Source: a virus | Reading direction: 5' to 3' (one strand) | IMG/VR virus record: IMGVR_UViG_3300017991_000060 | Coordinates: 1-64,000 of that record | DNA length: 64,000 nt | Part shown: piece by piece, positions 3-22,174 of the stretch | Layout of the letters: each line of letters begins with the position of its first letter | How positions within the stretch are numbered: position 1 is the first letter of the stretch | Made by a program: the position numbers and the translations under genes | The notes under the pieces: generated by a model | What the model was told of the DNA's origin: nothing | The model's database searches: none | The model's input: the letters and a program-made list of their open reading frames with translations, nothing else

Positions 3-413
3 CCTACCAAGGAACCACCACCCGCCCTTCCGCTTGCACTCGCCCTCCCGCTTGATCTTCTTCCACTCCCGCTCCTCCCAGTCCTTCGCCCACTTGGGGG
101 TACCCTGGTGAGCCGCCACCGCACCCCCGGCCGCCGCGGCGACGAAGGGGAACACTTCGTCAAGCTGCCTGCCGGATCGGCTGGACTGGTAGGAGTACCG
201 GAGGCTCTCCGAGAGGTGGAACTCGCCCCCGAGGGCCTCGGCGTCATCCCCGAGCATGTCCGCCACCCTGGAGTCGGTGGTGTAGGCCGTCACCCAGGTG
301 CCGGACTTCTCGGACTTGACACGCCATCGGTACGGTGGCTTCATCTCGATGAGGCGTTCGAACGCGACCGCCTCCGCATCGCCAGGGAACTCGAACGCCA
401 AACGGAATCTCAT
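3..413 (-). CDS. Hypothetical protein, runs off the left edge; carries an internal LSE-SLR-YSYQ-SSRSGRQ-LDE motif
   Basis: Manual translation from ATG 413 (ATGA overlap with the upstream stop): MRFRLAFEFPG...EFHLSESLRYSYQSSRSGRQLDEVFPF..., open to the window edge; not in the ORF track. Confidence 0.75.
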   Translation of the reverse strand, partial: MRFRLAFEFPGDAEAVAFERLIEMKPPYRWRVKSEKSGTWVTAYTTDSRVADMLGDDAEALGGEFHLSESLRYSYQSSRSGRQLDEVFPFVAAAAGGAVAAHQGTPKWAKDWEEREWKKIKREGECKRKGGWWFLGR

Positions 414-3400
414 CTTACCCTCCGATCCGACTTGCGTTTCCGCTTCGCTAGCCACTTGTCGTTGGCGCGCTTCCAGTCCGCTCGGATGTCGTCCTTCGTG
501 ACCTTCCCTGCGATGTACTTCTTGGCAAGCCCGATAGTGCGCGCGCCTGCTGGCTCGATCCCAAGCTCGCGGCCTTTCTCCGTAGGCTCGACCTGGAACG
601 TCCGTACCACCCTGGTGATGCTGTCACCGTAGGGACTGTCCGACTTCCGCACCATCATCTCGTCTTGGATCTTGTTGACCCGCGCGAGGTCCGAGACGAA
701 AACGTCGCTCTTGAGCACCATGCCCAAGTATCGAAACGCTTCTGTGACCCACAGGCGTCGTTTGCCGCTCGCGAACTCAGGCTGGAGGACTGACGCCCAC
801 AACAGACGCCGCGCGAGGTTGCGCGCGCCCTCTTTCAGTTTGCTCTCCGCCACCTGGAGGACCTCCAGGTCCGGGTACTCATCGGCCAGGTCCGCTACAG
901 CCTTCTCCGCGTCGGGCTCACAGTGGTGCCCCCAGGGCTCCAGCTTCCCGCCGCGCTTCCGGTCGAACTTGGACACTTGCCACGGGCGGCCGGGATCACA
1001 GTCACCGCGGACGGAACGGTGAATCATGAACTCCTGGCGGTTCTTCTTGGATCGTAGGTGCACGCCGTGCTTCGCGCCGCGAACCTTGCGGACCATCACG
1101 TTGGAACGCTCCGCGGTGCGGGCCATGCCCCGGATGACGTCCTTCATCGGCCCTTCGATGCGGAGCCGCTTGAAGCGGTCCTCGAACTCCTGGTAGGTCA
1201 TCGCTCCGTTCTTCACCTTGTCCAGAAGGTCGAACCCGAGGCCCAGGTCGTCTCCCTTCGCCTCGGCTAGCTCCTTTGGCGTGAGCTTCCAGGCGAGGAC
1301 CGGCCCTTGTAGCCGCTCGGCGTTGAACATGGCCCCGAAGAAGTTCTGCCAGTCCTGGTCGCTCCAGCCGCACTGGTAGCCCTTCGTCGTCTCGCCCCAG
1401 TCGCCCTTGTCCTCCGTGCGGTGGATCGCGGCGAGGATCTTCCCGCCCGGCTTTAGGAGACCGCGGGCGGCCATGAGGACCTGGTGGCGGAGTGCCATCG
1501 TGGGGACCACGTTCAGCACGTAGTTCACCATGATGGTGTCGTACCGTTTCAGGAGCGGCTTGATGTCCGGGTGGTGCACGGGGTCGTACCGGGCGAAATC
1601 GTGCACATCGTGGCCCGCGCCATAATCGAGGACATCCCCGGTGAGTAAGCCCTGGTCCTGGTACATCTTCGCCGGCCGGCTGATCTCCTTCCGCGCGAGG
1701 GCTGTGGCCCCGCCCATCACCTTGTCGATGGTGGCGTCCTCGACGATCTCCCTCCCCAGGTAGGCTTTGGTCAGGGCGTCGCTCGCGTGGGCGGCGACCT
1801 CGAACGGGCACGCCACGCTCTCCCCGCGCTTCTTCATCGCCTCCGTCAGCTTCGGAACGACCTCCGCCTCCCAGTACTTCTTGTAACCGATGCGGTTCCG
1901 GTCGGGGTTCAGCTTCTCCCAGGCGGAGGAGCGCGCCTTGCTCGCCTCCACGTCGAAGCCCTGATAGTCGTCTCGGACGAAGGCCCACTTGTGGTGGTAT
2001 ATCTGGGGGTTCTCCGCGTTGTAGGGACGATGTGCCGCCTGGGCCACACCCTTCGCCACGCTCCAAGAGTCGCCCACCGTCGGCTCATCCGCGGCGTTCC
2101 AGTCGGGGGAGCTGGTGAACGTCACCTCGTCCGTCTGGCGGTCCCATCGGATGATGGAGTACCGCGCATCCTGGGGGAGCGCCTTCTCGGCCTCGGCCAC
2201 CCGCTCGTTCGGGATGGGCGAGTCGTCGAGGGCGGTGTGATGCACGTAGACCTTAGAGCCCACGACCTTGCCGGGTTGCCGCGCTTCTGACTCCGTGACC
2301 ATCAGCCCAGAGGACTCCTCCAGGCTGGCGCCGAGGCGGCCGACGTTCGGGTTGAAGTCGTAGGAGTACCCGTCCGGGCTCCGCCGGAGCGACTTGTCCA
2401 GGAGGTTGTCGATGGAATCGCCCAGCCCCTCGATGCCGGAACGGCTGAGCTCGTACCAGTCCCCATCCGTCGGGTCCCAGACAAAGAGGTCTCGTGCCGG
2501 GACAGACCCCCGCGAGAAGTAGTAGTCGTACTTGTTCTCCATGTCCTCGCGGTACTCGACCCCGTGCCGCTTCTTCACCTGGTAGGAGAGGACCACCACC
2601 GTACGGTCCCGGTGCGCCTCACGCCACTTCTCCTCCAACTCCTCCGGGTCGCCCCAACTGACGTAGAACTCTTCCCACTCCTCTTCTGTCTCCGGCTTCT
2701 CATCGAGAGGGGGGAACTCTGGGGCGCCGTACTCTGCGTGTTGTCCGAGCACGATATACCAGTTGTCCACGCGGTCGGCCGTCGCGACGAACACCTTGCC
2801 CCGGCTGTGTCCGGCGTAGGCCGGGGCGGTCGCGCCGATTCCACCACCCCCGGCGCCCGGCTTCAGCCCGTGGCGTCGAATGCTTTCCAGATGCCCGAAG
2901 TACGTGACGTGGTAGAGCCAAGTGTCCTCCGGCACATTGACCTTGTCTCGGAAGGCCATCTCCGCCAGCTCGGGGGCGGACTCGGCCGCGCGGTGGATGC
3001 GTGCGCCACTATGCTTCAACAGTGCCTCCAGCCCGAAGTGCTTGGGGCGGAGACGCTGTAGCTCGTCCCAAGTCACCCACTCCGCCAGCGCGGTTTCCCA
3101 GTTGAGCTTTGGTTCGAACTCCTCATCCACGAGGCCGATGAAGTTCGAGTACCGGAAGCCGCCCCCAGGCGATGTGAACACGTAGGCGGGGAAGAGATCG
3201 ATGTCACCGCGGTACCCAAGCTCTTCCTCAATCTCTCGAAGCGCGGCCTTCTTCGGGTCCTCCCCCGCATCAATGGCTCCCCCAAAGACGCCCCAGGTGT
3301 TGGGCTCGTTTACGTGGGGGGAACGTAGGCCAACCAAGATGCGGCCGGTCCTGGGGCAGATGGGAAGCACCCCAGCGCCAGCGTTGCCCCAGAACGGCTC

Positions 3401-3472
3401 ACCGCCAGCGTGGGTGTACGCCGCTTCTAGAAAGTCCCGCACCCATTTCCCGGCGATCTCAGAGAGGTTCAT
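410..3472 (-). CDS. Polyvalent polyprotein: NUDIX hydrolase, ADP-ribosyltransferase-like, Dnd-associated-MTase-like domain, class I SAM methyltransferase and two unknown modules
   Basis: Nudix box GGAIDAGEDPKKAALREIEEELG; YHVTYFGHLESIRRHGLKP; GKVVGSKVYVHH...YHHKWAFVRDDY; VLDYGAG...NYVLNVV; GGAGG RBS before ATG 3472. Confidence 0.8.
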   Translation of the reverse strand: MNLSEIAGKWVRDFLEAAYTHAGGEPFWGNAGAGVLPICPRTGRILVGLRSPHVNEPNTWGVFGGAIDAGEDPKKAALREIEEELGYRGDIDLFPAYVFTSPGGGFRYSNFIGLVDEEFEPKLNWETALAEWVTWDELQRLRPKHFGLEALLKHSGARIHRAAESAPELAEMAFRDKVNVPEDTWLYHVTYFGHLESIRRHGLKPGAGGGGIGATAPAYAGHSRGKVFVATADRVDNWYIVLGQHAEYGAPEFPPLDEKPETEEEWEEFYVSWGDPEELEEKWREAHRDRTVVVLSYQVKKRHGVEYREDMENKYDYYFSRGSVPARDLFVWDPTDGDWYELSRSGIEGLGDSIDNLLDKSLRRSPDGYSYDFNPNVGRLGASLEESSGLMVTESEARQPGKVVGSKVYVHHTALDDSPIPNERVAEAEKALPQDARYSIIRWDRQTDEVTFTSSPDWNAADEPTVGDSWSVAKGVAQAAHRPYNAENPQIYHHKWAFVRDDYQGFDVEASKARSSAWEKLNPDRNRIGYKKYWEAEVVPKLTEAMKKRGESVACPFEVAAHASDALTKAYLGREIVEDATIDKVMGGATALARKEISRPAKMYQDQGLLTGDVLDYGAGHDVHDFARYDPVHHPDIKPLLKRYDTIMVNYVLNVVPTMALRHQVLMAARGLLKPGGKILAAIHRTEDKGDWGETTKGYQCGWSDQDWQNFFGAMFNAERLQGPVLAWKLTPKELAEAKGDDLGLGFDLLDKVKNGAMTYQEFEDRFKRLRIEGPMKDVIRGMARTAERSNVMVRKVRGAKHGVHLRSKKNRQEFMIHRSVRGDCDPGRPWQVSKFDRKRGGKLEPWGHHCEPDAEKAVADLADEYPDLEVLQVAESKLKEGARNLARRLLWASVLQPEFASGKRRLWVTEAFRYLGMVLKSDVFVSDLARVNKIQDEMMVRKSDSPYGDSITRVVRTFQVEPTEKGRELGIEPAGARTIGLAKKYIAGKVTKDDIRADWKRANDKWLAKRKRKSDRRVR

Positions 3473-3537
3473 ACCGTCCTCCATCCCCTGGAGGATACCA
3501 AGCTCGGCAGCCAGCGGCTAGAGAGCTCCTCCCTACC

Positions 3538-3568
3538 GTTTGACAGACGGGGCGCAATCGGGTATTGT
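3538..3568 (+). promoter_or_regulatory. sigma70-type promoter
   Basis: GT-TTGACA-N17-TATTGT upstream of the plus-strand cassette. Confidence 0.8.
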
Positions 3569-3606
3569 TGCCCCTGGGGCAATGGTGCCCAGGAAAGGAG
3601 CGAACC

Positions 3607-4224
3607 GTGAGCAACATATTCGTGTGCGAGCACCGGGGCTACGCGATCACCATCAACTGCAATGGGAGGTTCCTGGCGGAAGTGCCGAGCCTCCGAAACG
3701 ACGACACCATCCACCACATCAGCGAGAAGACTCTCGACGACGCGAAGGCCGCCATCGACGCGAAGATCGGCGCGGACAAGCGGAAGCCCATCAACATCCC
3801 TGTCACCGTGGTAGGGCTCGACGACGGCCGGAAGTACAGCGCCAACCGACGGCCCGAGCGCGTGGTGGACGGGACCCTCATCGGCATCAACGCCTCCAGC
3901 GGGAAGTTCCGCGTCAAGGACAAAGACGCGACCCACCAGTTCACCTCGAACTACGGCAAGTGCCAAGTGATCCTCCAGGACGACCCGGAACGCGATGCGA
4001 TCCTCGCGGCCTTCCGCAAGATGAACGACGCCGACAAGGCGGCTCGTGAGGCAACCGATGCGTTCAGGGCTGCCATCAAGGGGCACGTCATCGAGGGCGG
4101 CGGCTACGGCACGAACAGCCACAACGTCATCGAGAAGGAGCGGGCTCTCGTCGAGAAAGCGGAGAGCCTCCGCGCCTCCTGGGCTAAGACGGGGAAGGCT
4201 AAGAAGAAGGGGAAGGGGAAGTAG
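3607..4224 (+). CDS. Hypothetical protein
   Basis: GTG start after AGGAG; GC3-rich codons; basic C-terminus. Confidence 0.75.
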   Translation: MSNIFVCEHRGYAITINCNGRFLAEVPSLRNDDTIHHISEKTLDDAKAAIDAKIGADKRKPINIPVTVVGLDDGRKYSANRRPERVVDGTLIGINASSGKFRVKDKDATHQFTSNYGKCQVILQDDPERDAILAAFRKMNDADKAAREATDAFRAAIKGHVIEGGGYGTNSHNVIEKERALVEKAESLRASWAKTGKAKKKGKGK

Positions 4225-4225
4225 G

Positions 4226-4723
4226 ATGGGCGAGAGCTCGCACGAGACGCAGACCCGCGAGCTCCTCGCGGAGCACGGGAAGTACATCCGGAACACGAAG
4301 CACGGCGAGCTCTGGGAGATCCCGGTCGGTACCTCCGGCCGGGTGATGACCCCGGACTCGAACGGGCACGGCGGAGGGGGTGGTGCGGAGCACCGCGCCT
4401 GGAAGAACGCCCTGGCGGATGTCCGCCGGGTGCTGCGTGAACACCAGCGGCCGGAGGCCGATGAGGAGGACGACGTGGCGACAACCAGGACGGAGATGAT
4501 CCAAGCGGCCGGGGTCCACCTAGAGACGACGACGAAGAAGATTGTGGAGCGCACAACTCGCGCGGTGCTTGACAAGGCGGCGCTTCTACAGATCGTGCTC
4601 GGCATCGACGGGATCGACGACGGTGACACCGTGAAGCTCGACATCGAGGACCTCGGAATCGAGGCCGTGCTCGGGGCCAACTTCCATTGCACCGTCACGC
4701 ACATCAGCGTCAGAGAGGAGTAG
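4226..4723 (+). CDS. Hypothetical protein with HicA-like N-terminal domain
   Basis: RNTKHGELW...RAWKNALADVRRVL pattern; ATG one base after the upstream TAG. Confidence 0.5.
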   Translation: MGESSHETQTRELLAEHGKYIRNTKHGELWEIPVGTSGRVMTPDSNGHGGGGGAEHRAWKNALADVRRVLREHQRPEADEEDDVATTRTEMIQAAGVHLETTTKKIVERTTRAVLDKAALLQIVLGIDGIDDGDTVKLDIEDLGIEAVLGANFHCTVTHISVREE

Positions 4724-4726
4724 GCC

Positions 4727-5089
4727 ATGATCGACATCAAGGCGGAGGGCGTTCCGCTCGGGCGCACGAGCGGCATCATCATGGCGGCGGCCGACAGTCT
4801 GCACCCGCTCGTCGCCCGCTACCAGGCCGGGCGCGCTGACCTGGAGCGGACGTGCCTGTGCATCGAGCACGAGGTTCGCACGGCCGCCCTCGGATGTGGT
4901 GGGAACTGGAAGGACATCCGGGTCATGTGCGACGCGGCCACGCAGTCGCCGGAGACGCTAGAAGCACGCAAGGTGCGCCTCACGTTCGGCATCAAGGTAG
5001 GGCCGACCCCGGAATGGACTGGCGGCCACTTCATCCTGGGATGCGAGCTCGGCGCGTTGATGGTTGAGTACCAACCGTGGGAGGTGTAA
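4727..5089 (+). CDS. Hypothetical protein
   Basis: ORF coupled in the plus-strand cassette. Confidence 0.65.
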   Translation: MIDIKAEGVPLGRTSGIIMAAADSLHPLVARYQAGRADLERTCLCIEHEVRTAALGCGGNWKDIRVMCDAATQSPETLEARKVRLTFGIKVGPTPEWTGGHFILGCELGALMVEYQPWEV

Positions 5090-5090
5090 C

Positions 5091-5321
5091 GTGGGAGAGA
5101 CGTGTTGTCTGTACCGCCGGAAGCTGGTCATCGGCTTGCTCGCCGTGCTCCCCGAGGAGGAGTGCGGGGTGAAGGACTCCGAGGTGGCCGACCTCATCGA
5201 CTTCGACCTCCAAGCCCCCTCGGGGAAGCCCGTCATCCGGGTACGCTTCTGCCCCTGGTGCGGGAAGCCCTGGGATGGGAAGTCGGAACAACGCATCGTG
5301 GACATCAAAGGAGTTAGCTGA
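5091..5321 (+). CDS. Small Cys-containing hypothetical protein
   Basis: GTG after GGGAGG; CC...FCPWCGK. Confidence 0.6.
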   Translation: MGETCCLYRRKLVIGLLAVLPEEECGVKDSEVADLIDFDLQAPSGKPVIRVRFCPWCGKPWDGKSEQRIVDIKGVS

Positions 5322-5574
5322 TGACTGACATCAACTTTCTTCAAGTACTTGGTGTGCGGCCGGACGTACTCTGCCGCTGTCAGTGAGCTGTGGTAGTCTC
5401 CCTGGTGAGAGCTGCCCCCCGGCGGCAGCCGTACCTAGGAAATGAGAAGGGGAGGCCGGGGTGAACCGGAAGGCGCGGGAGGGTGATTGACCTTTGCGGA
5501 GTGACTGACCCCGAACACCGAGCCAGGTACGACGCCCACCCGACAACGGCGGGCGCTCTCTTTGCACGGGTCAG

Positions 5575-5850
5575 CTAGAAGTCCACCATCGCGCGGTGGA
5601 ACCTATCCTCTGGTGTGGAGAGGGTCTTCCTCAGTATGGGTCCGATCCCGGCGATGTAGGCGATCTCCTCCGGGTTCCCCCCAGCCGCCACCACCCTCTT
5701 CTTGAGTCGCCCCTTCGCGAGCTGGAGCGCCCTCCAAGAGTGCACGCCGCGGGGGCCGTCGAAGGTTCGCGTCCTGAGGTGGTAGTAGCAGGGGCCGGGG
5801 AGGGAGAACACCCAGGCCCGGTCCTCGGGGGAGAGGTCGGAGAGGCTCAT
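5575..5850 (-). CDS. Hypothetical protein ending FHRAMVDF
   Basis: ORF track; ATGA coupling. Confidence 0.65.
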   Translation of the reverse strand: MSLSDLSPEDRAWVFSLPGPCYYHLRTRTFDGPRGVHSWRALQLAKGRLKKRVVAAGGNPEEIAYIAGIGPILRKTLSTPEDRFHRAMVDF

Positions 5851-6356: not shown

Positions 6357-6360
6357 CTTC

Positions 6361-6789: not shown

Positions 6790-6791
6790 CG

Positions 6792-7031
6792 TCACCTCCC
6801 CGTGCGGCGGCCCGGCCGGATTCGAGGGGCTCGCCACTTCGCGTGTTTTTGAGGTAGGGTTATCCTCCCCACCATCCCCTCACCACATCCACGAGGCCCT
6901 TCCCCGCGGCGTACATCAGGAACAGCACCGGCCATCCGGAACACTCCAGACGAGGCAGCTCCAGTCCGGCGGGGGCAGTTGCAGTAGCCGTCGTGGTCCC
7001 AGTCCCGGTCCTCTAGACTCGCCCCTGTCAT
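6792..7031 (-). CDS. Small hypothetical protein
   Basis: ATGA overlap with the HNH gene stop. Confidence 0.4.
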   Translation of the reverse strand: MTGASLEDRDWDHDGYCNCPRRTGAASSGVFRMAGAVPDVRRGEGPRGCGEGMVGRITLPQKHAKWRAPRIRPGRRTGR

Positions 7032-9503: not shown

Positions 9504-9506
9504 GGC

Positions 9507-10501: not shown

Positions 10502-11356
10502 CTAGCCCTTGGGCGTCACCTTCTCCATCCATCTCTCCCGCTCGGAACGAGGGAGAACGTTCCACGTCTCCGCCGAGAGCTTGTCCCAATCGGTGTGGTC
10601 GATGTGGCCCGTCGGCTTGCCGCCGAAGAAGTGGGTGACTTGCCACTCGACGCCGGGGCGCGTGCTCGGGTGGAGCACGTACTGCCGTCCGCCGCCAAGC
10701 TCGACCACGTAGATGTCCTTGTCCGAGTACACGTCCATCAGGTGGGCGTCGAAGAGGTCGCGCGCCTTCTTCATGTTCATCGGGTCGCGCGGGTCCAGGG
10801 GCACGAGGTCGTACCGCCTCACCTCGGCCGAGGTGAGGGGGCGGTCGTAGACCAAGACGCCGTGCTTGAAGCGCGGGTTGGAGCTCTTGCGCGTGCGGAC
10901 CCAGCCCTTCTCGGGGGAGCCGCCAGAAAGGATGGGACGCGCCCACACCCCGTACTCGAACTCGCGGGCCAACGCCCCCTCGCTCACCTCGTACGTGTAA
11001 GTGGGCTCGGCGTCCTCGGTGATCTCGCCCTCGCGCACCTTGACAGAGATGTCCGGCACGCCCGCGGCAAGGGCGCGGTCCGCGAGGAGCTTCTTGTTCT
11101 TCGTCGCCCAGGGCACGCCCTTCAAGTCGGAGATGGTGCGGGCGAAGGCGAAAGCGTGGGCCTTCTTGCTGTAGGAGCCGATGACGATGCCGCCGGTGGG
11201 GAGGTGGATCACCGGCCACGGGCTCCCGTACACGTCGGGCATGGCGGCCTTCCGGTTGAAGGTGGCGATGTGCGGCCCGAACAGCCAGCCCTTCACCTGG
11301 AGCCCGGCCTCTTCCCACGCCGGGCCAAGCGTAAACGTCCCTGCCCTCGCCTTCAT
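10502..11356 (-). CDS. Modular protein with DarA C-terminal-like (defence against restriction) domain
   Basis: YGVWARPILSGGSP...FKHGVLVYDRPLTSAEVRRYDLVP; internal ITE..TYTYEVSE. Confidence 0.7.
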   Translation of the reverse strand: MKARAGTFTLGPAWEEAGLQVKGWLFGPHIATFNRKAAMPDVYGSPWPVIHLPTGGIVIGSYSKKAHAFAFARTISDLKGVPWATKNKKLLADRALAAGVPDISVKVREGEITEDAEPTYTYEVSEGALAREFEYGVWARPILSGGSPEKGWVRTRKSSNPRFKHGVLVYDRPLTSAEVRRYDLVPLDPRDPMNMKKARDLFDAHLMDVYSDKDIYVVELGGGRQYVLHPSTRPGVEWQVTHFFGGKPTGHIDHTDWDKLSAETWNVLPRSERERWMEKVTPKG

Positions 11357-12228: not shown

Positions 12229-12852
12229 CTACACCTCGATCCCAAAGCCTTCGATCTTCTCGATGGTCTTCGCGAGCATCCCCTCCACGTCCGAGAGGTC
12301 GCCCAGAGGGATGCCCTGGACACCAAGGCGACGGTCCTCGAAGGGGAGATGCAAGCGGTACTTGCCCTTCGTGCCGGTGACCTTCAGCTTGTCCCAGCGC
12401 GCGGTACGTAGGAGGTGGGAAAGGGCGTTGAAGAAGAGGCGGCGGGCGGCATCCTTCTTCTCGGTGGCACTCGGCTTCGCCCCCTTGGCCTTAGCCTTCT
12501 TCTTCGGGGGCAGCACGAGGACGGAGCCGCCTTTGAAGTCCACGAAGAGGAGGGCGTCGTGGAGGTAGGGGGTGCTGGCGGAGACGGACCGTTTCCCGAA
12601 GAGGTTGCGCCACGCGCGCTCCCCAGCCTTCTTCGCCCCCGCCACGTTCGCCGCGCCCGAGTCGAAGCTCCACGCCTGGATGAGCGGGTTCGTGCGGCTC
12701 ACGCGAAGGACGCGTATCGGGCCGTGGGGGCGGTCGGGGAACTGGGGGTCCGGGCCAATAGCCGCGATCCCCGCGGGCTTGAGGAACTGGTACGGGGAGA
12801 GGACCTCCCAATCCCCTACAGGTTTGGTGCTCGACTCGTACGTGTACCCCAC
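12229..12852 (-). CDS. Hypothetical protein with MGYTYESS leader
   Basis: GGGAGG precedes GTG 12852, in frame with the track ORF. Confidence 0.7.
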   Translation of the reverse strand: MGYTYESSTKPVGDWEVLSPYQFLKPAGIAAIGPDPQFPDRPHGPIRVLRVSRTNPLIQAWSFDSGAANVAGAKKAGERAWRNLFGKRSVSASTPYLHDALLFVDFKGGSVLVLPPKKKAKAKGAKPSATEKKDAARRLFFNALSHLLRTARWDKLKVTGTKGKYRLHLPFEDRRLGVQGIPLGDLSDVEGMLAKTIEKIEGFGIEV

Positions 12853-12963: not shown

Positions 12964-15900
12964 CTACTTCCTCAACCGCCGTTTCCGGCGCTTCCTTGGC
13001 GGTCCCGACTTGTGGTCCGACTCGTGATCGAAGGCGGCACGGTTCGCCAGGTTCCCCGCCGCGTTGTTCCTGGTGTTCCCATCCTTGTGGTGAACGTGCT
13101 TCCCGTCCCCCACACGGGCCTTGCCCTTCTTGATGAGCTTGTACCGGGCGCGGTTCCTCGCGCATCGGTCGTCCTTCCGAGCGCGCGTCTCGCGGGCGTA
13201 CTCGGCGCGGTAGTCCCGCTCGCGCTCCTGGAGCCGTGACCCTTCCCGCCACTTCGAGCCGAGGTCCGTCAAGCCGGAGGGCGGGATGCTCTTGAGCCCG
13301 TGGTGGCGCTTGATCTCCTGGAACATCGCCGTGGCAACACCGCGCCGGCGGTGCTCCTCGGGGACTTCGATGTGGTCGATGCGCGCCGTGCCGTCATCGA
13401 AGTACGAGTACTCCACCTTCCCCACCACGCGCCCGGCGTGGTCTCGGGCGATGAGGCCCATGTAGTGCTGCCCCTGGTAGCTGTCCGTGTGGAGGTGCTC
13501 GAAGCGGAGCCCGAGGGCCGGCATGATGGCCGGCTTGCCGTGCCGCTTCTCCAGGTAGCGGAGGATGGTGTCCTCGCTCGGGGAGGTGGGCGCGTGCTCC
13601 AGGTGCAAGCGCCCGCCCTTCCAGGAGGCGAAGCGCCCGCCCCCCATCCAGAGGAGGTCCAGGGCCACCCCGTCCGTCCAGAGCTTCGCGGACTCCGCCG
13701 GCCGCCGCGCGAGGAAAGCGTCGATGACCTTCTTGTGCGCCGGCGTGAGCTCGATGCGCTCCATCACGATCTCTCGCCCGTGTAGGTACCCCTTTGCGGC
13801 GAAGTCCTGATGCAGCGCGAGGGCATCCGGGGTGCGGTCGTCAGAGACGAGCAGCTTGCCGCCCTGCTCCCTAGCCCACCGCGCGGCGTGGCGGTACATC
13901 TTCGTCGCCCATCCCCTACGTTGGAAGGCGGGCCACACCATCACGTTGCTCACCTCGAACCCGCCCGGCACGGGCACGACAGCGATCTCCCCCACCTCCT
14001 TCCCACCGTCCCGGAAGATGAACTGGTGCTTGCCTCCGTAGCTGGCGTGCTGTATCGCCGCTTCGGTGAGCCCGCCGCCGTGGGCCTTGTGCACCGCCAT
14101 CACGGCCGGAACGGCGCGCCTCACCACGTCCTCGGCCGGACCATCCAGGACCAGGAGACCCATGCGCGCGAGCATGGGGAGGGTGTAGGGGGGCGAGATG
14201 CGGTACCGTCGGCTCACCGGGTCCTTCATCCACCCGCGCTTGCCGCGCTTCTCCCGCGCGAGCCACTGGTCGCAGTCGTCGTTCGGGTTCGAGGGGGTGA
14301 GGTGGCCTTGCTCGTCGTCCATCTGATGCTTCGTCACGTCCGGGCGCGCGGTGTCGTAGTGCTTCCAGACACGGTACGCCGCGGGGGAGAGGTCCTGGCG
14401 ATCCGAGATGAGCCCACCGCCCATGATCGAGGCGAGCTCGATGGCCACGTCGTAGAGTAGCGGCCCGAAGCCGTGATCGGAGCGAGAGAAGTCCACCTCC
14501 CAAGCACCATCGCACGGCGTCTCCGGGTTGTCGATGCGCGCGATGGTGATCCGGCCCGCGGGGCGCGCGGCCGGGGAGTCAGCCTCCAGGTCCCAGTACT
14601 GGGTGAGGATGATGTTGTTCCCGGCGCGGACCCAGACCCCTACACCGGGCGGGAGCGCCTGGGGTCCCTTCGCCGCTTCGGTGAGCGCGCCGCGGATGGT
14701 GTCCTCGCGGTCGCCGCCGTCGATCACCAGGCGGTCCATGCGCGCCAACATGGGGAGGGTGTAGGGAGGGTCGATCACGTACCGGCGAGAAATGGGGTCC
14801 TTCACCCACCCGCGCTTGCCGTACTTCTGCCGCGAGAGCGCCTGGTCACAGTCGTCCTCTGGGCGCGCCGGCGTCAGCGTCCCGTACTCATTGTCGAGCT
14901 GGTGCTTCTCCACGTCCGGCCGCTTGGTGTCGTAGTGCTTCCAGACTTTCCGCGCCGAGTTGGAGACGGACCGGCGATCCGAGATGAGGCCGCCGCCCAG
15001 GATCGAGGCGACCTCCACCGCGGCGTCGTAGAGGAGCGGCCCGAAGCCATGCGTCGCCCCGGACATCTTCACCTCCCACGCACCCTCGCACGGCCAGATG
15101 CTCTCGACGCGATGGAACGTGATCTCCCCCTCCAAACCTGGCCGCTCGGACGGCTCCCCAGTTTCGAGGTCACAGTAGTACACCTTGCTGATGTAGTTAC
15201 CGGCGCGCACGCCGATTCCGATGCCCGACGGGAGGTCGCGCGGCCCCTTCGCCACCTCGTCGAGCGCGGCCACCCGCTCCCGGATGTGTAGGCGTTCAGT
15301 CAGGTCAGCCCGGAGGGCGTCCTCGGCCTCCGCCATCTCCCAGGGGTCCAAAGGTCCAGCGAAGTCGCTCGGCTGCATGTCGGTGTGCTTCGCGAGGCGC
15401 TTCACCACTGACGGGATGTGCGGCCCGTTGTAGTAGAGGCGGCCCGCCTTCGCGAGCGCACGCATCGTGCTCCTCGGGTCCTTCTGGGAGCGCCGGAAGC
15501 GGCGGGACAGGGCGCTCAGGTGCCACGGGTCCGCGTCATCCTCGGCCGATCCCTGGTCACAGTCGTCGCTCGGGTCCTGGGGGGTGAGGTCGCCGTATTG
15601 GTTGTCGAGCTGTGCCTTCGTCACGTCGCGGCGGCGCTTGTCGTAGTAGCCCCAAACGCGGGCGGCGTCACCGGACACCGTGACCCGATCCGACATGAGC
15701 CCTCCCCCAGCCGCGGTGGCGAGCTCCATCGCCACGTCGTACAGGAGCGGCCCCCATCCACGGCCCGCCTCAGCGCCGGACACCATGAAAGCATCGCTAC
15801 ACGGGCCGTGCCCGCCGCGATCAATGCTCACCTCACCGCGCATCTCGGCCTCATCCTCAGCGGCGATGTCCCAGTACACCACCTGGAAGGAGTTGGGGCT

Positions 15901-17067
15901 GTAGGAGAGGAGGAGAACCACCATGTTCGGGTCCTCACGCACCAGGTCCGCCACACCCTTCGCGGATTCGACCAGGGCCGGGGTGCGGCGGCGCTCGGGA
16001 AGGAACTCCTTCCAATCGGCAGACTCAACCTCCACGTTCGGGGAGACGGCCTGCTTATAATCCGCCTCGAACTGCGGGACCCCCTCCCCGTAGACGCGGT
16101 ACAGCTTCTTCCACTTCTCGTCGTCGCGGGGCTCCACGTACATCGCGATGATCCGGTTCCGGCCGCGGAACCCTACAACGGACTGGAGGCGGCGGTGCGG
16201 CGCGATGGCCGTCGCCGTTTCGTACCGGCTCATCTCTTTCGAGATGCGGTCGAGCATCCGGCGATGCGCCTTTTCAGCTTGGGGGATGGTGGGGGCGAGG
16301 GCGTAGAGCTTCGCCTTGGTGATCTCCCAGGCGTCATCACCCTTCAGCCCGCGCATGAAGTCCCTGGCCGTCTTGCCGTCGAGCTTCATACCCTGGTCCA
16401 ACGCGGCTTGAACGAACTCGGGGCTATAGTATCCGGCGCGCTCTCTCTCCTCCTTCACGTAGTACGCCACGGCACGGTTGAGCTCTGTGTGTACCAGGGT
16501 CGGAGCCATGCGGCGGAGGAACTTCTCGTGCTCCGGATGGAGAGCCCCACCCATCCAGTGACGCGAGAGCTCCTCGATGAACGCCTCGGTGAACTTGTCC
16601 TCGACCTCGCGGCGGAAGGTGGCGTCAGCCTTCATCCGTGTCCACGTCTGAAACACAGTGTAGGAGTGGCCGAGGTCGAACATGTACCGGCCGGGGATGC
16701 CCATACCGCGTTCGAGGGCGCTCTTAACAGTCGTGTTAATGCGATCCTCGTCCCAGTACCCAGCCTTCTCCTGGGCCTCGATCACGATGTAGAGCTCCTC
16801 ACCACCGAACTTGCGCGCGGTGTTCCCAGCGGAGCTGCTGGCGGTGTGGAACTTCGGCGTAACGTAGACCCCACGGAGGGAAGCACGGCTGGGCCGCGTG
16901 GCGCTCGCGTCCGGGTCGGCCCGCCACGTCTTGTGCGTCGGTTCAGGGGAGAGCCCGTTCGCCATGATCGACTTGAGGAAGTAGGTGGAGGTTCCGTGGT
17001 ACACGATGCGACGATAGTTGAAGCGGCGCTCGTTGAGGACCTGCCACATCTGGTACGTGTAGGCCAT
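12964..17067 (-). CDS. Polyvalent polyprotein: ART-like, three tandem GNAT-like repeats, two further GNATs, HNH
   Basis: YHGTS..LKSIMANGL..GVYVT; G[WF]GPLLYD x3; QRRGWATKMY; HRRRGVATAMF; HVHHKDGNTRNN; AGGAGG before ATG 17067. Confidence 0.8.
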   Translation of the reverse strand: MAYTYQMWQVLNERRFNYRRIVYHGTSTYFLKSIMANGLSPEPTHKTWRADPDASATRPSRASLRGVYVTPKFHTASSSAGNTARKFGGEELYIVIEAQEKAGYWDEDRINTTVKSALERGMGIPGRYMFDLGHSYTVFQTWTRMKADATFRREVEDKFTEAFIEELSRHWMGGALHPEHEKFLRRMAPTLVHTELNRAVAYYVKEERERAGYYSPEFVQAALDQGMKLDGKTARDFMRGLKGDDAWEITKAKLYALAPTIPQAEKAHRRMLDRISKEMSRYETATAIAPHRRLQSVVGFRGRNRIIAMYVEPRDDEKWKKLYRVYGEGVPQFEADYKQAVSPNVEVESADWKEFLPERRRTPALVESAKGVADLVREDPNMVVLLLSYSPNSFQVVYWDIAAEDEAEMRGEVSIDRGGHGPCSDAFMVSGAEAGRGWGPLLYDVAMELATAAGGGLMSDRVTVSGDAARVWGYYDKRRRDVTKAQLDNQYGDLTPQDPSDDCDQGSAEDDADPWHLSALSRRFRRSQKDPRSTMRALAKAGRLYYNGPHIPSVVKRLAKHTDMQPSDFAGPLDPWEMAEAEDALRADLTERLHIRERVAALDEVAKGPRDLPSGIGIGVRAGNYISKVYYCDLETGEPSERPGLEGEITFHRVESIWPCEGAWEVKMSGATHGFGPLLYDAAVEVASILGGGLISDRRSVSNSARKVWKHYDTKRPDVEKHQLDNEYGTLTPARPEDDCDQALSRQKYGKRGWVKDPISRRYVIDPPYTLPMLARMDRLVIDGGDREDTIRGALTEAAKGPQALPPGVGVWVRAGNNIILTQYWDLEADSPAARPAGRITIARIDNPETPCDGAWEVDFSRSDHGFGPLLYDVAIELASIMGGGLISDRQDLSPAAYRVWKHYDTARPDVTKHQMDDEQGHLTPSNPNDDCDQWLAREKRGKRGWMKDPVSRRYRISPPYTLPMLARMGLLVLDGPAEDVVRRAVPAVMAVHKAHGGGLTEAAIQHASYGGKHQFIFRDGGKEVGEIAVVPVPGGFEVSNVMVWPAFQRRGWATKMYRHAARWAREQGGKLLVSDDRTPDALALHQDFAAKGYLHGREIVMERIELTPAHKKVIDAFLARRPAESAKLWTDGVALDLLWMGGGRFASWKGGRLHLEHAPTSPSEDTILRYLEKRHGKPAIMPALGLRFEHLHTDSYQGQHYMGLIARDHAGRVVGKVEYSYFDDGTARIDHIEVPEEHRRRGVATAMFQEIKRHHGLKSIPPSGLTDLGSKWREGSRLQERERDYRAEYARETRARKDDRCARNRARYKLIKKGKARVGDGKHVHHKDGNTRNNAAGNLANRAAFDHESDHKSGPPRKRRKRRLRK

Positions 17068-17201
17068 GAGACACATCCTCCTAGCCCGCCACGATACCAG
17101 ATGCGGCGGCTTAGTTCACGCTGTTGGGCGGGTCGCGTACGCGCACGCCAGGCACTTGCTCGACTCGGGGTCGATGGGTTGGCGCTGCTCGGGTTGATCG
17201 C

Positions 17202-17465
17202 TCATTCGGTCGCCCCCTCTACGGCTTCCACGTCTCCGATGTTGTCTTTCCACTCGCACGCGATAGCGGCGTTCGCCGTCATCATGGCCATCCGCACCTT
17301 GCGGATGGCCGCGCTCTGATCCGGCCCGGCCGGGGTCATGTTCAGGATGATCTTCGCGAAGGCCCGCGCGCCGTCGCGCAACGCCTCGTAGCGTTCCGCC
17401 TGGTCCCTGTCCGGGGGATGGTACGTGAACCAGGTATCCAAGTCTCGTTCGGTGAGAATCCTCAT
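17202..17465 (-). CDS. Acb2/Tad1-hairpin-like small protein (candidate immune-signal sponge)
   Basis: WFTYHPP..DQAERYEALR...AIRKVRMAMMTANAAIA family pattern, recognised from memory. Confidence 0.55.
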   Translation of the reverse strand: MRILTERDLDTWFTYHPPDRDQAERYEALRDGARAFAKIILNMTPAGPDQSAAIRKVRMAMMTANAAIACEWKDNIGDVEAVEGATE

Positions 17466-17504
17466 CGTTCGCTTCTCCTCCCTACCCATCAAGTGCTTAT
17501 CCTC

Positions 17505-17795
17505 TCAGAAGTCCGTCATCGCTTGCTGTAAGATGGGACGCTTCGCAGGTGAACCGTAGAATCCCTCACATACGCCAGGCGTAGGGGGGCTCGGCGGCAA
17601 CGCCCGCTCCGCGTCGTCCGCCCCCTCCAGGAACCGGGAGAGCCGGTCGCGGAGGTGACGCGCACCGTGTTGGTCGAGGGCCACCCGGAACACCTCGCGG
17701 GTCAGCGGGTCCGAGGCGGCCAAGATGAACTCGTCGCGGGACGCCCACCCCGACCCGCTGTAGGTGAGGCCGCTCGGAGAGACGTGGGAGCTCAT
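17505..17795 (-). CDS. Hypothetical protein ending LQQAMTDF
   Basis: ATGA coupling. Confidence 0.6.
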   Translation of the reverse strand: MSSHVSPSGLTYSGSGWASRDEFILAASDPLTREVFRVALDQHGARHLRDRLSRFLEGADDAERALPPSPPTPGVCEGFYGSPAKRPILQQAMTDF

Positions 17796-18184
17796 ACAAT
17801 GTCCTCCCGCTTGTTCCAGGGCATGGGGGTCCCGTTCGCAACCCACTCGTCCACAAAGTCCCAGGTACCATCGAACCGGAAGCCGCGGTCATCCGCGTAG
17901 GCCACCGCGCCGGGCTTCTCCCCTGCCGCCACGGCGTCCACCTCGATGCCGTGGAGGTCGAGCCACTGCTTCACGGCCCGCACGCCACCCGGCTCATTGC
18001 AGCGCGCCGACATCACCACCACGTCGAACCGTTCGCGGAGCTTCGCCACCGCCTCTCGGGCGCCGGGCACCGGCCCGTCGCAGACCGTCTCCACATCCAC
18101 CCAAGGGGACGTGTAGGCATGGATCACGCCGTCGAAGTCGAGGACTACGGCACGCCGCGTGCCCGTCGGGGGCATCCAAACCAT
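17792..18184 (-). CDS. HAD-family phosphatase (nucleotidase/PNKP-like)
   Basis: VVLDFDGVIH; VVVMSAR; KPGAVAYADDRG. Confidence 0.8.
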   Translation of the reverse strand: MVWMPPTGTRRAVVLDFDGVIHAYTSPWVDVETVCDGPVPGAREAVAKLRERFDVVVMSARCNEPGGVRAVKQWLDLHGIEVDAVAAGEKPGAVAYADDRGFRFDGTWDFVDEWVANGTPMPWNKREDIV

Positions 18185-18984
18185 CACGCGCCCCCGTTGA
18201 AGATAGCCGCGCGGAGCCGCTCCCCGTTCACGTCGTCGGCCTTGACATCCCCCACGGCCCACAGGAGGGCCTCCCTGATCGTAGGGGAAGCCCTCTCCGC
18301 CACCTTCCGCACCTTGGCCTTGGAGGGGCGCACCGACGACTTGCGCCGCCGCCTAGGCTTCCCGGAGGGCGTCGGGGCGGGGAGGTCCTCCTCCGCCAGC
18401 TTCGCCTCCTGGTCCTCGCGGCTCATGGTGGTGTAGGGCTTCGCGGCGGCCATCGTCATCTGGCCGCGCTCGACGGCCCGGCGCACCGGCGGGGAGAGGT
18501 CGAGAAGAGCGAGGTACCGCTTCACCTGGATGGAGCTCAGCCCCCACGCCGCGGCGGCCTCGTCCACCGTGCGGCCGGTGTCCAGGTACCGCTGCATCTT
18601 CTCGGCCTTCTCCATCAGGGTGTCGCCCCTACGGAGCTCGTTCAGGAACACCATCATGTCGATGATGCGGTCGTCGCTCCCGCGCTCCACCTCGCACGGG
18701 ACCATGAGGCGCTCGCCGCCCATCTCCTCCAGGCGGCGGTTCGCCTCGCGGCAGTTGATGACCCTACGGCGGCCGTCCACCACCTCGATGGAGTCACCGT
18801 TCTTCCGCACCTTGATGGCGACCTTCACCCCAAACGACATCATGTTCCGCACGATCTTCTCGTCCGGCGGGAGGTTCACCCGAGGGTCGTAGAGCGGGTG
18901 CGCCCTGTCGGTGATGAGCGTCAGGATGTCAGGGTCCAGGAGGAACGCCTGACGCCGCTTCCCCGGAAGTGCCTGGCCTCCCAT
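18184..18984 (-). CDS. ParB/Spo0J-like protein
   Basis: HPLYDPRV...IEVVDGRRRV; HTH-like region. Confidence 0.75.
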   Translation of the reverse strand: MGGQALPGKRRQAFLLDPDILTLITDRAHPLYDPRVNLPPDEKIVRNMMSFGVKVAIKVRKNGDSIEVVDGRRRVINCREANRRLEEMGGERLMVPCEVERGSDDRIIDMMVFLNELRRGDTLMEKAEKMQRYLDTGRTVDEAAAAWGLSSIQVKRYLALLDLSPPVRRAVERGQMTMAAAKPYTTMSREDQEAKLAEEDLPAPTPSGKPRRRRKSSVRPSKAKVRKVAERASPTIREALLWAVGDVKADDVNGERLRAAIFNGGA

Positions 18985-18985
18985 G

Positions 18986-19213
18986 TTACTTCCCCTTCCT
19001 CTCGAACTCTTGAAGCCTCCGCTCGTGGTCAGTGGCTTCCTCCTGCATGTAGGTCACGTCCGAACGGAGCGCGGCGACCTCGGCCTCCAACTCGACAACC
19101 CGCACGCGGAGCTGCACTTCTCCCTGGGCGGCGCCACGCTCGGCGTGCATCGCCATGCCAATGACCGCAACCGCCAAGCAGATGATGACGGCCAGGCTCA
19201 TACGATCTCCCAT
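18986..19213 (-). CDS. Small membrane-anchored coiled-coil protein
   Basis: LAVIICLAVAVIGMAM followed by a coiled coil. Confidence 0.55.
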   Translation of the reverse strand: MGDRMSLAVIICLAVAVIGMAMHAERGAAQGEVQLRVRVVELEAEVAALRSDVTYMQEEATDHERRLQEFERKGK

Positions 19214-19316
19214 CCCTACACTCCTTTGAACCAGCGGCAGGCGCTCCCGATCCCGTCGAGGGCGTGCAAGAGTAGCCCCAGGAGGCACCCTGAAGCCCAC
19301 GACTTACGCCGCCCGC

Positions 19317-19511
19317 TCATATCTCGCCCGCCTTCCTCATTCGCTTCAACATCTTCCCGGCCGCTTCGGGCTCCATGCCGGTGAACTCCTCCACATCGAC
19401 AACGAGGTCCTCCCAGGCATGTCGCCTTGACTCATGCTCATTCTGTAGGGCCTGCCACCGTCCGCGAATCCACGACTTCATCATCGCGAGGTTGAACTCG
19501 TCGGTGCCCAT
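19317..19511 (-). CDS. Small hypothetical protein
   Basis: ORF track; coupled. Confidence 0.55.
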   Translation of the reverse strand: MGTDEFNLAMMKSWIRGRWQALQNEHESRRHAWEDLVVDVEEFTGMEPEAAGKMLKRMRKAGEI

Positions 19512-19780
19512 CAGAAGTCCGTCATCGCTGCGCTGAAGTTGTCGCGGCTAGCGTCGCTCTCCAGCATGTGCCTCGGTACCCCTACGGCCTTGCCAATCTC
19601 GGTGAGCGCCTGCCTCGGCGGCACGTCCACCGGGGCTGGAAGGCGCTTCAGGCTGGCGGGGTCGTGGCAGCACTCGCCGGGTTCAACGGCGTCGGCGCGC
19701 GCCTGGGGGCACTCGATCAGCTCGCCGCGCTCGCGACACAGAACCCTACAGAACCCACCGCCCCAATGTCCACAAGGCAT
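19511..19780 (-). CDS. Cys-rich hypothetical protein ending FSAAMTDF
   Basis: GGAGGAG before ATG 19780, downstream of a promoter. Confidence 0.6.
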   Translation of the reverse strand: MPCGHWGGGFCRVLCRERGELIECPQARADAVEPGECCHDPASLKRLPAPVDVPPRQALTEIGKAVGVPRHMLESDASRDNFSAAMTDF

Positions 19781-19799
19781 AACGCCCTCCTCCCCGGCA

Positions 19800-19830
19800 A
19801 CAATACCAGGGCGGAGGGCGTATGTCAAAC
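19800..19830 (-). promoter_or_regulatory. sigma70-type promoter
   Basis: GT-TTGACA-N17-TATTGT. Confidence 0.8.
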
Positions 19831-19845
19831 GGTGTAGGGTCGGCG

Positions 19846-20150
19846 TCAGTCGGCGGGGGGCTCGGCCGGGGGGTCCTCGTCCGCCAACCCGGTCGCCTCC
19901 AGGATCTTCCCGAGGACCACCTGGGGAACGCCCAGGCCGCGGGCTGCATCCGCGATCTTCATCTTGCTTCGCTCGTGTTCGCCCCCGCCATGAAGATGGA
20001 CATAACCTGTACGACCCAGAAGTTGTCGGGGAGCTTGTCGGTGATGTAGGGGGCCGCGAGGACGAGCCCCGCGATCACGAGAAGGAGAAGGCTGAACTTC
20101 CCCTCGCTAGTCTGTAGTCCCGTCCTTCCGCCCTTCGTCTGCTCGCTCAT
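19846..20150 (-). CDS. Holin-like membrane protein split into two frames (19959-20150 and 19846-19962)
   Basis: GLQTSEGKFSLLLLVIAGLVLAAP plus a second hydrophobic segment; frames joined by an ATGA overlap. Confidence 0.4.
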
Positions 20151-20442
20151 CTCCGCCTCCAAGTTGCGCTTCATCGAACACGCGAATGATGTGCGTCCTC
20201 ATGCTTGCCGGACAAGTGCACTTGCCGCCGTTGCTCACGGCCGGACAGCCCTTCAAGTGCTCCCCCGTTTCCCTACGTCGGCCGACCTCCGCCGTGAGCT
20301 CGATGAAGAGCTTGAGGTTGATCGGCCGCGAGTCGTTCACCCGTTCCAGGATGCGCCGCCGGAGGGCCGGGTCATCCTTGATCTTCTGGAGGGCATATCT
20401 CCGTTGCCGCGCGAGCTGGGCTTCCAGTTCGGGGTGATCCAT
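20107..20442 (-). CDS. Hypothetical protein
   Basis: ORF track; H..CP..CTC. Confidence 0.6.
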   Translation of the reverse strand: MDHPELEAQLARQRRYALQKIKDDPALRRRILERVNDSRPINLKLFIELTAEVGRRRETGEHLKGCPAVSNGGKCTCPASMRTHIIRVFDEAQLGGGDERADEGRKDGTTD

Positions 20443-20445
20443 GCC

Positions 20446-20748
20446 CTACCTCTCTTCCTCGGCGTCTGCCTCAGCTACTCCGAACACCTCTTTCTGCCAA
20501 TCGATCTGGTCACGGAGGAGCGCCTCTACCTTCTCGCTGTAGCGCGTCTCCAACTTGCGTTCGCGAGCGTGCCAGGCGGCCCGGCACTTCTTGCACTCCT
20601 CGCGCTCCTTCAGGATGTGGCGAACGAGAAAGATGACAGCCACGATGCACAACGCCGGTACCCCGCCCTGGGTGATGATGTCAACCAGTCCGGCCGTTCC
20701 TCCGGTCGTTGTCGCATCTACCGTCGCTTGTGCCTGTGCCAGAATCAC
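20446..20748 (-). CDS. Holin-like single-TM protein
   Basis: QGGVPALCIVAVIFLVRHILKE followed by a charged coiled coil. Confidence 0.5.
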   Translation of the reverse strand: MILAQAQATVDATTTGGTAGLVDIITQGGVPALCIVAVIFLVRHILKEREECKKCRAAWHARERKLETRYSEKVEALLRDQIDWQKEVFGVAEADAEEER

Positions 20749-20966
20749 CGATACCTCCTAGACCTATCCGCATCCCCTAGTGTACTCGCAGCTAAGGCCC
20801 GCCGCTCATCGAACTCTCGTGCCAATGCGTCAACCGCTTCCCGCGGAAACGTCTGTAGGTGATCCGGCCTCAGCAAAACCCCCTTCCGCACGTACTCCCC
20901 GAGGAGGAGCTTAGAGCACGCGCCGAGCACGCAGGCCGCGTCGGCGTAGTGGATACGTTCCGTCAC
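20745..20966 (-). CDS. Small HTH-like protein
   Basis: GTG 20966; YADAACVLG...EYVRKGVL. Confidence 0.4.
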   Translation of the reverse strand: MTERIHYADAACVLGACSKLLLGEYVRKGVLLRPDHLQTFPREAVDALAREFDERRALAASTLGDADRSRRYR

Positions 20967-21367
20967 CTCACGCTGCGTGCAATGGACATCAGCTCGTACT
21001 GTAGGCCCTGGTCGGTGACTTCCTTGGACAACGCCGCGGCGTCCCAGGTGTTCCAGTTCACCGGCATCTCTTCGACGATCTTCACCACCTTCTTCGCCGT
21101 GGCGAGGTCGCGGATGTCGTGCATCATCCCGAGGCCGGTGGGAAGGTGCGTGAGCACCCAGTCCTTGGTCGCCCCGGTACCCCACGAGTGTAGGCCCCAC
21201 AAGCGGCCCTTACCCACGATGTGACCCTTCACCGTGCGCGGCCCGTCATCCTCCATGATCTTGAACGAACCGCGGCCGGCACGCTTCGGCTTGTTGAGCG
21301 GCTCCGTCATGGCCCGGCGCTTTCCGCCTCTCCGCCTCGCTTCGCTCATCTCGTACGTGAACCGCAT
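20963..21367 (-). CDS. Hypothetical protein with MRFTYEMSEA leader and HLPTG module
   Basis: AGGAGG RBS; WVLTHLPTG resembles WPVIHLPTG in 10502-11356. Confidence 0.75.
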   Translation of the reverse strand: MRFTYEMSEARRRGGKRRAMTEPLNKPKRAGRGSFKIMEDDGPRTVKGHIVGKGRLWGLHSWGTGATKDWVLTHLPTGLGMMHDIRDLATAKKVVKIVEEMPVNWNTWDAAALSKEVTDQGLQYELMSIARSVR

Positions 21368-21376
21368 GGCCGCCTC

Positions 21377-22174
21377 CTACTTCTTCGTCGGGTTGCCGAG
21401 GGCCGAACCGTACGAGCGGCCAACCTTGAGGAGCGTGTTGATGTCGAGTGGGACCACCAGGGACTTGAGCGTGAAGTTCGGGGTCGCGAGGAAGCCCTGC
21501 CCGAAGCGGTGGTGCCCATCGAGGATGTAGTCGTCGGAGCTCACGATGATGGTAGCACTCGTGGCGAGAAAGCCGCCGATTTCGGGCACGCCGAAGGCGA
21601 TGATCGACGCGATGCACTTGTCGAACCAAATCTCTCCCTGTAGAGGTTTCAGGGTCTTCACGGCGCGCATGACGACGGGGGCGCGGAGCTTGTCGTCGTT
21701 CGGGTCGCCGTCGCGCTGGCCGAGGACGGTCCACTCGATGTCACCGAACATGGGTGGGCTGGAGTGCTGCCACGGGAAGGGGTCGCCAGGAACGCACTGG
21801 GCGCACGCCATGTCCATGTCGGCGTGCGGGGAGAAGATGTCTACGTTTCCGGCGCGGATGTCCTGCTCGAACTGGCCGATGTCATCGGGCTCGATGACGG
21901 GCATCCGATCCCTGGGGATCGGGAGGGCGTGGCGCATCTTGGCCTTGAGCTGCGTGTAGTTCCGGTCGAAGTCTGGGAGCTCGGTGTCGAGGTCCAGGCC
22001 GACGGCCGAGAACATGCGCTCCGCCACCCGGCGCGCCTCCTGCGGCGACGTGGTGGCGACGTTGTGGGTGTAGCGACCCTTGTACCGCTTGAGATAGTCC
22101 TTGCCCCACGCCTCCTCCGCACTCGACCGCTCGACGATCATGGGGCCTTGGTACGACTCGTACGTGAACCGCAT
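21377..22174 (-). CDS. ParB/Sulfiredoxin-like domain protein with MRFTYE leader
   Basis: LKPLQGEIW; IIVSSDDYILDGHHR; GAGGAGGTG before ATG 22174. Confidence 0.75.
   Translation of the reverse strand: MRFTYESYQGPMIVERSSAEEAWGKDYLKRYKGRYTHNVATTSPQEARRVAERMFSAVGLDLDTELPDFDRNYTQLKAKMRHALPIPRDRMPVIEPDDIGQFEQDIRAGNVDIFSPHADMDMACAQCVPGDPFPWQHSSPPMFGDIEWTVLGQRDGDPNDDKLRAPVVMRAVKTLKPLQGEIWFDKCIASIIAFGVPEIGGFLATSATIIVSSDDYILDGHHRFGQGFLATPNFTLKSLVVPLDINTLLKVGRSYGSALGNPTKK

Follow-up and report, generated by a model that had tools for sequence, protein, structure and literature searches.

We sought to explain why several otherwise unrelated proteins of an uncultured phage begin with the same few residues, and whether this common start could be an address that sends them into the phage head. 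The stretch analysed, here called the window, covers positions 1 to 64,000 of an IMG/VR virus record of 117,865 bp (IMGVR_UViG_3300017991_000060), which has a G+C content of 66% and is about 95% complete by estimate. The source phage of about 118 kb is T4-type, and the minus strand holds nearly all genes of the record. The element in question is the N-terminal consensus M-x-[YF]-[TS]-Y-(E/Q/H), which we refer to as the tag. The tag is real, far beyond chance, and it behaves as a portable, lineage-specific leader that works as a peptide. With a probability that we put at roughly 0.6, it would serve as a capsid-targeting and processing leader for injected effectors, and thus as a functional counterpart of the capsid-targeting sequence (CTS) of phage T4.

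The original prediction, made by reading the window, had pointed to four N-terminal copies of the motif, and these were found on the minus strand as MRFTYE at 22174 and 21367, MAYTYQ at 17067 and a GTG-started MGYTYE at 12852. A six-frame search with the strict motif [YF][TS]Y[EQ] returned six copies in the window and seven in the genome, all of them on the minus strand and within real genes. Five of the seven (g017, g018, g029, g030 and g116) lie at residue 3, directly after the start codon, so that the whole-genome search bore out the N-terminal enrichment and added a fifth copy, MGFSYE at genome position 106034, outside the window. Proteome composition predicts about 0.63 copies in all proteins together and, at residue 3, only 0.0024, and the binomial probability of at least five strict copies at that position is 6e-16. 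Genes were called with a script based on codon usage and Shine-Dalgarno sequences, which gave 138. The relaxed form M-x-[YF]-[TS]-Y, which adds g118 with MRFTYH, heads 6 of these 138 (P ~2e-13); with the same gene calling it heads 0 of 267, 0 of 259 and 1 of 634 genes in three other phage genomes (1 of 1,160 in total). These P values are post hoc, the motif having been defined from the same data, and the margin is very large. The start sites of the carriers match exactly those of predicted proteins in a public collection (P0001, P0121, P0212 and P0214), and a GGAGG-type ribosome-binding site precedes each of the four N-terminal copies in the window. Apart from the tag the six carriers are unrelated to one another (all BLASTP E > 0.08). 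As the original prediction had noted, no copy of the motif lies within any recognisable replication or tail gene. A near-match shifted by one residue, MASFSYD at the start of g084 (genome 70716-71942; L004:6716-7942, minus strand), was not counted as a leader because it is part of a conserved structural fold; the first 104 residues of g084 are 45% identical to a structural protein (DUF2460) of phage G003, whose own leaders are described below.

The carriers stand in adjacent pairs, g029/g030, g017/g018 and g116/g118. The g030 gene (21377..22174, minus strand, 265 residues; leader MRFTYE at nucleotides 22157-22174, IVE at residues 13-15) encodes a ParB/Srx-like domain with an ILDGHHR motif, matches phrog_2859 in PHROG and belongs to a large, unnamed family with 175 homologues (alignment A1). 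Its top Foldseek matches were ParB, Noc and sulfiredoxin, all weak (E ~1), and residues 1-10 of its AlphaFold model have a predicted local distance difference test score (pLDDT) of 37 and lie outside the fold. Its neighbour g029 (20963..21367, minus strand, 134 residues, isoelectric point 10.2; leader MRFTYE at 21350-21367, MSE at residues 7-9 and MTE at 20-22) matched no known family in Pfam and PHROG scans, and the same was true of g017 (12229..12852, minus strand, 207 residues, isoelectric point 10.0), which has a GTG start and the leader MGYTYE at 12835-12852. The largest carrier, g018 (12964..17067, minus strand, 1367 residues; leader MAYTYQ at 17050-17067, LNE at residues 11-13, nucleotides 17029-17037), is a polyvalent effector: a YHGTS domain lies at its N-terminus and an HNH domain at its C-terminus, and Pfam recognises two or more GNAT acetyltransferase domains. 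Its N-terminal domain is ART-like by motif only, the assignment resting on YHGTS, and no ART profile match was obtained for it. The last pair lies outside the window. There g116 (genome 105429-106034; L006:1429-2034, minus strand), located between terminase and portal and starting MGFSYE, scored 25.9 bits against the S-adenosylmethionine (SAM) lyase family, below the Pfam cut-off of 28 bits, and we call it SAM-lyase-like only tentatively; g118 occupies genome positions 106423-106689 on the minus strand. Sequence searches of the PDB with g116 and the g030 family gave no match. Four of the six carriers (g017, g018, g029 and g118) are basic, with isoelectric points of 8.9-10.2 versus a proteome median of 5.9.

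Conservation of the tag could be followed in the nearest relative found, the metagenomic fragment L079, which was all that a metagenome scan for relatives yielded, and in a public protein. The g030 orthologue in L079 (about 60-63% identity) starts MEFTYES and uses ACC, GAA and TCA where g030 has ACG, GAG and TCG. P0213, an orthologue of g017 at 74% identity, also has a GTG start and reads (M)KYTYES. Across carriers and orthologues residue 2 varies freely while residues 3-5 stay fixed; the constraint acts on the peptide. The g018 orthologue in L079 has an extra N-terminal zincin domain of 340 residues (HELGHW; L079:5125-6147) that is absent from g018 here. Despite this inserted domain, the orthologue starts MPFTYNLTE behind a good ribosome-binding site, and the old junction was kept, reading ..SLNE-RRFHY in L079 and MAYTYQMWQVLNE-RRFNY (..VLNE-RRFNY) in g018. 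Since the junction is conserved between the two proteins, LNE of g018 is likely a processing site. A HELSHW domain similar to the L079 zincin sits behind the leader in L023/L025.

Homologues of the cargo in other phages start differently. Among more distant homologues of the g018 domain, P0122 starts MSDLTEALTGLL.. (MSDLTEAL..) and those in L090/L091 start MKAFEIINE. Homologues of g030 in phages of low G+C content start MRFKNYLTE, and most such loci contain two to four neighbouring open reading frames (ORFs) with M[RK][FL]xx[YF][LI]xE, a number that rises to 10 in L037 (leader arrays on the fragments L037:391-11927, L025:9293-12668 and L030:9971-12193). The leader-bearing genes of these phages include a CCA-adding enzyme (tRNA nucleotidyltransferase) and a polynucleotide-kinase-like ATPase, which would be candidates for packaged RNA-repair enzymes, and the form M[RK]Fxx[YF][LI]xE is recognisably like the T4 CTS. 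The complete 191.6-kb phage G003 encodes an S77 protease, and 17 of its proteins start M-x-x-[SA]-x-QL-x-EA and are clustered (loci L069-L078, e.g. 71121-72857, 97927-100618 and 149246-150936). N-terminal similarity pairs in G003 numbered 47, versus 9 and 7 at control offsets; applied to T4, this analysis ranked the IPII/IPIII pair first. The g030 homologue of G003 has an MGGLADQLAEA-type leader upstream of its called start, and the L-x-E inside the G003 leader matches the T4 gp21 site. Since homologues of g030 and g018 carry different leaders that are specific to their phages, these sequences argue that homologous cargo wears the leader current in its phage. The leader is thus portable and independent of the fold of the cargo: it is replaced by other leaders elsewhere, it stays N-terminal after the insertion of 340 residues, and it is disordered in the g030 model.

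The 518-kb phage G011 has a g018 homologue that reads ..AYKYWMQ..ILTE. General use of a Y-x-Y leader in this phage was considered and rejected, as 9 N-termini had it versus 5.9 expected, which is no enrichment. At L093:9962-11122 of G011, a homologue of the g018 N-terminal domain with 30% identity reads ..AYKYWMQINDILTE-RK, close to MAYTYQMWQVLNE-RR, and a neighbouring ORF at about L093 11995 starts MDYVYEML.

The genome encodes a T4-type head module. The Gp23-family capsid protein g091 (Pfam PF07068, 6.9e-18), the Peptidase_S77 protein g093 (PF03420, 2.2e-9) and the Gp20-family portal g115 (Portal_T4, PF07230, 1.5e-22) all scored above cut-off. The protease g093 is 31% identical to T4 gp21 and has LEHP and GLSSRG, its His and Ser motifs, at the positions of T4 His85 and Ser140. 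It also has a C-terminal extension of about 540 residues, as do its counterparts in G003 and G009. Between the protease and capsid genes lies g092 (genome 77770-79344; L004:13770-15344, minus strand), which has a strongly acidic N-terminal stretch with runs of D and E and matched no family in profile scans; because of this stretch, the missing family and the position between the two genes, g092 is a candidate scaffold core protein. A motif that could serve the protease, [LIM]-x-E, occurs within residues 6-22 in five of the six carriers and in 16% of other genes (P 5e-4), with variable spacing and with g017 as the carrier that is without it; the L079 leaders read ..HLTE and ..NLTE. An S77 protease is also present in six other records with cargo homologues, five of which have g030-family genes (one with an MRFKHYLTE cluster), the sixth being G011 with its g018 homologue.

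These features can be set beside what is known of protein loading into phage heads. In T4 IPIII the N-terminal 10 residues are enough for packaging, with residues 4 and 7 responsible for targeting and residues 8 and 10 directing cleavage (PMC9026906; PMC8442874), and CTS-like sequences are found on diverse internal proteins of T4-related phages (PMC9026906; PMC3012670; PMC8442874). The T4 CTS, carried by IPI, IPII, IPIII and Alt, is like the tag a short N-terminal leader on otherwise unrelated, often basic, anti-defence proteins; in both cases the conserved core is aromatic and the carrier genes are clustered, and a Glu-ending site of the L/I-x-E type, which is putative for the tag, follows. 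The two phages also have the gp23 capsid protein, the gp20 portal and the gp21 S77 protease in common. The two leaders differ in aromatic spacing, which is i, i+3 in MKTYQEFIAE of T4 and i, i+2 in M-x-[YF]-[TS]-Y here. Unlike the T4 CTS, the tag has a variable distance to the putative cleavage site and a cargo that includes a 1367-residue polyvalent enzyme. In phage P1, an N-terminal signal of 30 residues loads the giant anti-restriction protein DarB into a myovirus head, and the Dar proteins are without a common leader consensus (PMC9024508). P1 and the phage studied here are alike in having a DarA_C-like domain, found here in g015; they differ in that no consensus unites the Dar proteins, whereas six proteins here have one short consensus in common, and in that the P1 major capsid protein reportedly has its own scaffold domain. 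A gp21-related protease cuts the propeptides of inner-head and ejection proteins of phiKZ, 201phi2-1 and SPN3US after Glu, and the presumed role of these propeptides is to direct proteins into the prohead (PMC5694885). Those propeptides exceed 100 residues and have no shared short consensus, whereas the tag has five or six residues and cleavage would probably occur within 22. For phage polyvalent proteins, packaging and injection have been predicted (Iyer et al. 2017, PMC5512222). They resemble the proteins here in having ART-like, ParB/Srx-like and DarA domains, and a zincin MPTase domain as in the L079 orthologue of g018; that work deals with domain architectures and describes no address tag common to the N-termini. 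Our literature search found no paper describing the present consensus.

That the tag is a zip-code for head loading, as the original prediction had proposed, is supported by the head module, the conservation in orthologues, the presence of other leaders on the same cargo, the enrichment of [LIM]-x-E and the effector-like character of the cargo; from these we infer core binding, cleavage, packaging and injection. During prohead assembly the exposed, unstructured leader would dock the cargo onto the scaffolding core, with g092 as the candidate scaffold. Next, g093, the S77 protease of gp21 type, would cut after the nearby Glu in the [L/I/M]-x-E site, and the mature effectors would stay inside the head until they pass into the host together with the DNA. 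The injected set would comprise the ParB/Srx-like protein, the YHGTS/GNAT/HNH polyprotein, the SAM-lyase-like protein and two small basic proteins.

Several observations weigh against a head-loading leader. The consensus of the tag is unlike the T4 CTS, the two having only the tripeptide T-Y-[QE] in common, and that out of register; the original prediction had drawn a likeness to T4 MKTYQEFIAE, of which the functional analogy is partly supported, while the resemblance in sequence is superficial only. The distance to the putative cleavage site is not constant (7 to 19 residues), and the first 25 residues of g017 contain no [LIVM]-x-E. An obvious effector candidate, the NUDIX-methyltransferase polyprotein g002, does not have the leader and begins MNLSE.., and four carriers lie at the far genome end, beyond the replication genes. 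Finally, close relatives are short metagenomic fragments only, and leader conservation rests on three orthologues. A megablast search of the region against cultured phages gave no match, the capsid protein g091 is at most 27% identical to that of any cultured phage, and no relatives came out of scans of viral contigs in which g030, g017 and g018 were used as single queries; relatives of the capsid protein were 5-9 kb fragments only, without leader genes.

If the tag were a peptide signal with some other job, it could act as a propeptide that silences toxic effectors, dock a phage chaperone or a modifying enzyme, or signal degradation or timing, and no head loading would be involved. The enrichment and the protein-level conservation suit any peptide signal, g018 itself has GNAT acetyltransferases, and the leader is disordered in the g030 model, all of which fit such a role. 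We nevertheless regard it as unlikely: it leaves unexplained why T4-CTS-like leaders stand on the same cargo families in phages with a gp21-type protease, and it leaves unexplained the [LIM]-x-E site that follows the tag. The tag also misfits the known rules for N-degrons and ClpX N-motifs, its residue 2 being G, A or R.

An element acting at the level of nucleic acid, either an enhancer of translation initiation past the start codon or a homology block for cassette recombination as proposed for the T-even IP locus, has some points in its favour. The first 18 nucleotides from the ATG are identical in g029 and g030, four sites have TCGTACGTG in common, and T4 IPII and IPIII likewise have 30 identical nucleotides in common. 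This amount of DNA identity is what codon bias predicts. The genome uses TAC for 92%, GAG for 87% and TTC for 92% of the respective residues, and ACG for 46% of Thr, and the shared TCGTACGTG arises because this bias yields it from the peptide. TCC, ACC, CAG and CAC occur among the variants: g116 has TTC TCC TAC GAG and g118 has ACC and CAC, so that these two genes and the L079 orthologues (ACC, GAA, TCA, AAC) retain the peptide and not the DNA. Every copy of the 12-mer is in frame and none is on the opposite strand, and the 9-mer has a single further copy, which codes for a C-terminal ITYE in g061. The original prediction had allowed that only a DNA element might be conserved, regardless of frame; this check favours a peptide signal, as the 9-mer is absent from the Ser and ACC variants and from the orthologues. 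Codon bias, the non-identical variants and the synonymous changes in orthologues thus led us to reject the DNA-element reading as very improbable. Least probable of all is that the common N-termini are leftovers of 5' ends that were repeatedly duplicated or fused in one genome, with no present function, since the arrangement of carriers in adjacent pairs suits such a history but residues 3-5 are fixed where residue 2 and everything past residue 6 diverge, whether the copies of this genome or orthologues at 59-74% identity are compared, and the tag remains N-terminal after domain insertion in the L079 orthologue of g018.

Two strict copies lie inside proteins, and for these the original prediction had imagined excisable head-loading signals, each between two putative cleavage sites. 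Both copies are present as it described, and the idea of internal excisable copies gains no statistical support: two were observed and 0.63 expected (Poisson P ~0.13, not significant), and with the relaxed form 11 were observed and about 6 expected. In g015 (10502..11356, minus strand, 284 residues) the copy YTYE occupies residues 120-123 (nucleotides 10988-10999) and belongs to the linker ITE-DAEPT-YTYE-VSE; a DarA_C-like domain (Pfam DarA_C, residues 133-187) follows nine residues later. There are 89 representative homologues of g015, and many stand-alone proteins of about 150 residues start exactly at the ..YEYG.. start of this domain. Judging from this context, the copy could be what remains of an N-terminal leader after a leader-bearing gene fused to the gene upstream, or it may be an interdomain linker or a chance occurrence. 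The N-terminal 100 residues of g015 show a HLPTG-containing likeness to the body of g029 (23% identity, E 0.22), which is not significant. The other copy, YSYQ at residue 73 of g001 (1..413, minus strand, partial, cut by the contig end; copy at nucleotides 186-197), uses the differing codons TCC and CAG; no supporting context was found, and it is probably a chance occurrence.

Upstream of g002, g018 and g030, about 28-34 nucleotides before the starts, we noted TGnTAT(C/T)(C/G)T (window 3492-3500, 17091-17099 and 22200-22208, minus strand) without a TTGACA -35 element. In L079 the same GGTATCGTGG precedes the g018 orthologue. Genes of the replication region (g039, g049 and g062) have full TTGACA-N17-TGgTAA promoters, and virion genes have TGnTAG sites that lack a -35 element. 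Since the sites of the three effector genes, like those of the virion genes, have no -35 element, these effectors may share late-type control.

Four leader forms have now been seen: MKTYQEFIAE in T4, MRFxxYLxE in the low-G+C phages, QLxEA in G003 and [YF][TS]Y here. As a tentative extension, to which we give somewhat less than even odds, every phage with a gp21/S77 protease would have its own short N-terminal address code that co-evolves with its scaffold core. Under such a code, fused genes such as g015 might keep internal copies that still act after proteolysis, and the genome of any S77-protease phage could tell directly which proteins are injected along with the DNA. If the tag is indeed a head-loading signal, it would mark at least six proteins as injected cargo, including the 1367-residue multi-enzyme and the ParB/Srx-like and SAM-lyase-like proteins, and a head-loaded SAM lyase (g116) would be an anti-restriction device. 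New short packaging tags would then be available for protein delivery by phage heads, and genome-specific searches for N-terminal leaders could reveal injected anti-defence effectors in metagenomic phages. The CTS principle would reach well beyond the T-even phages.

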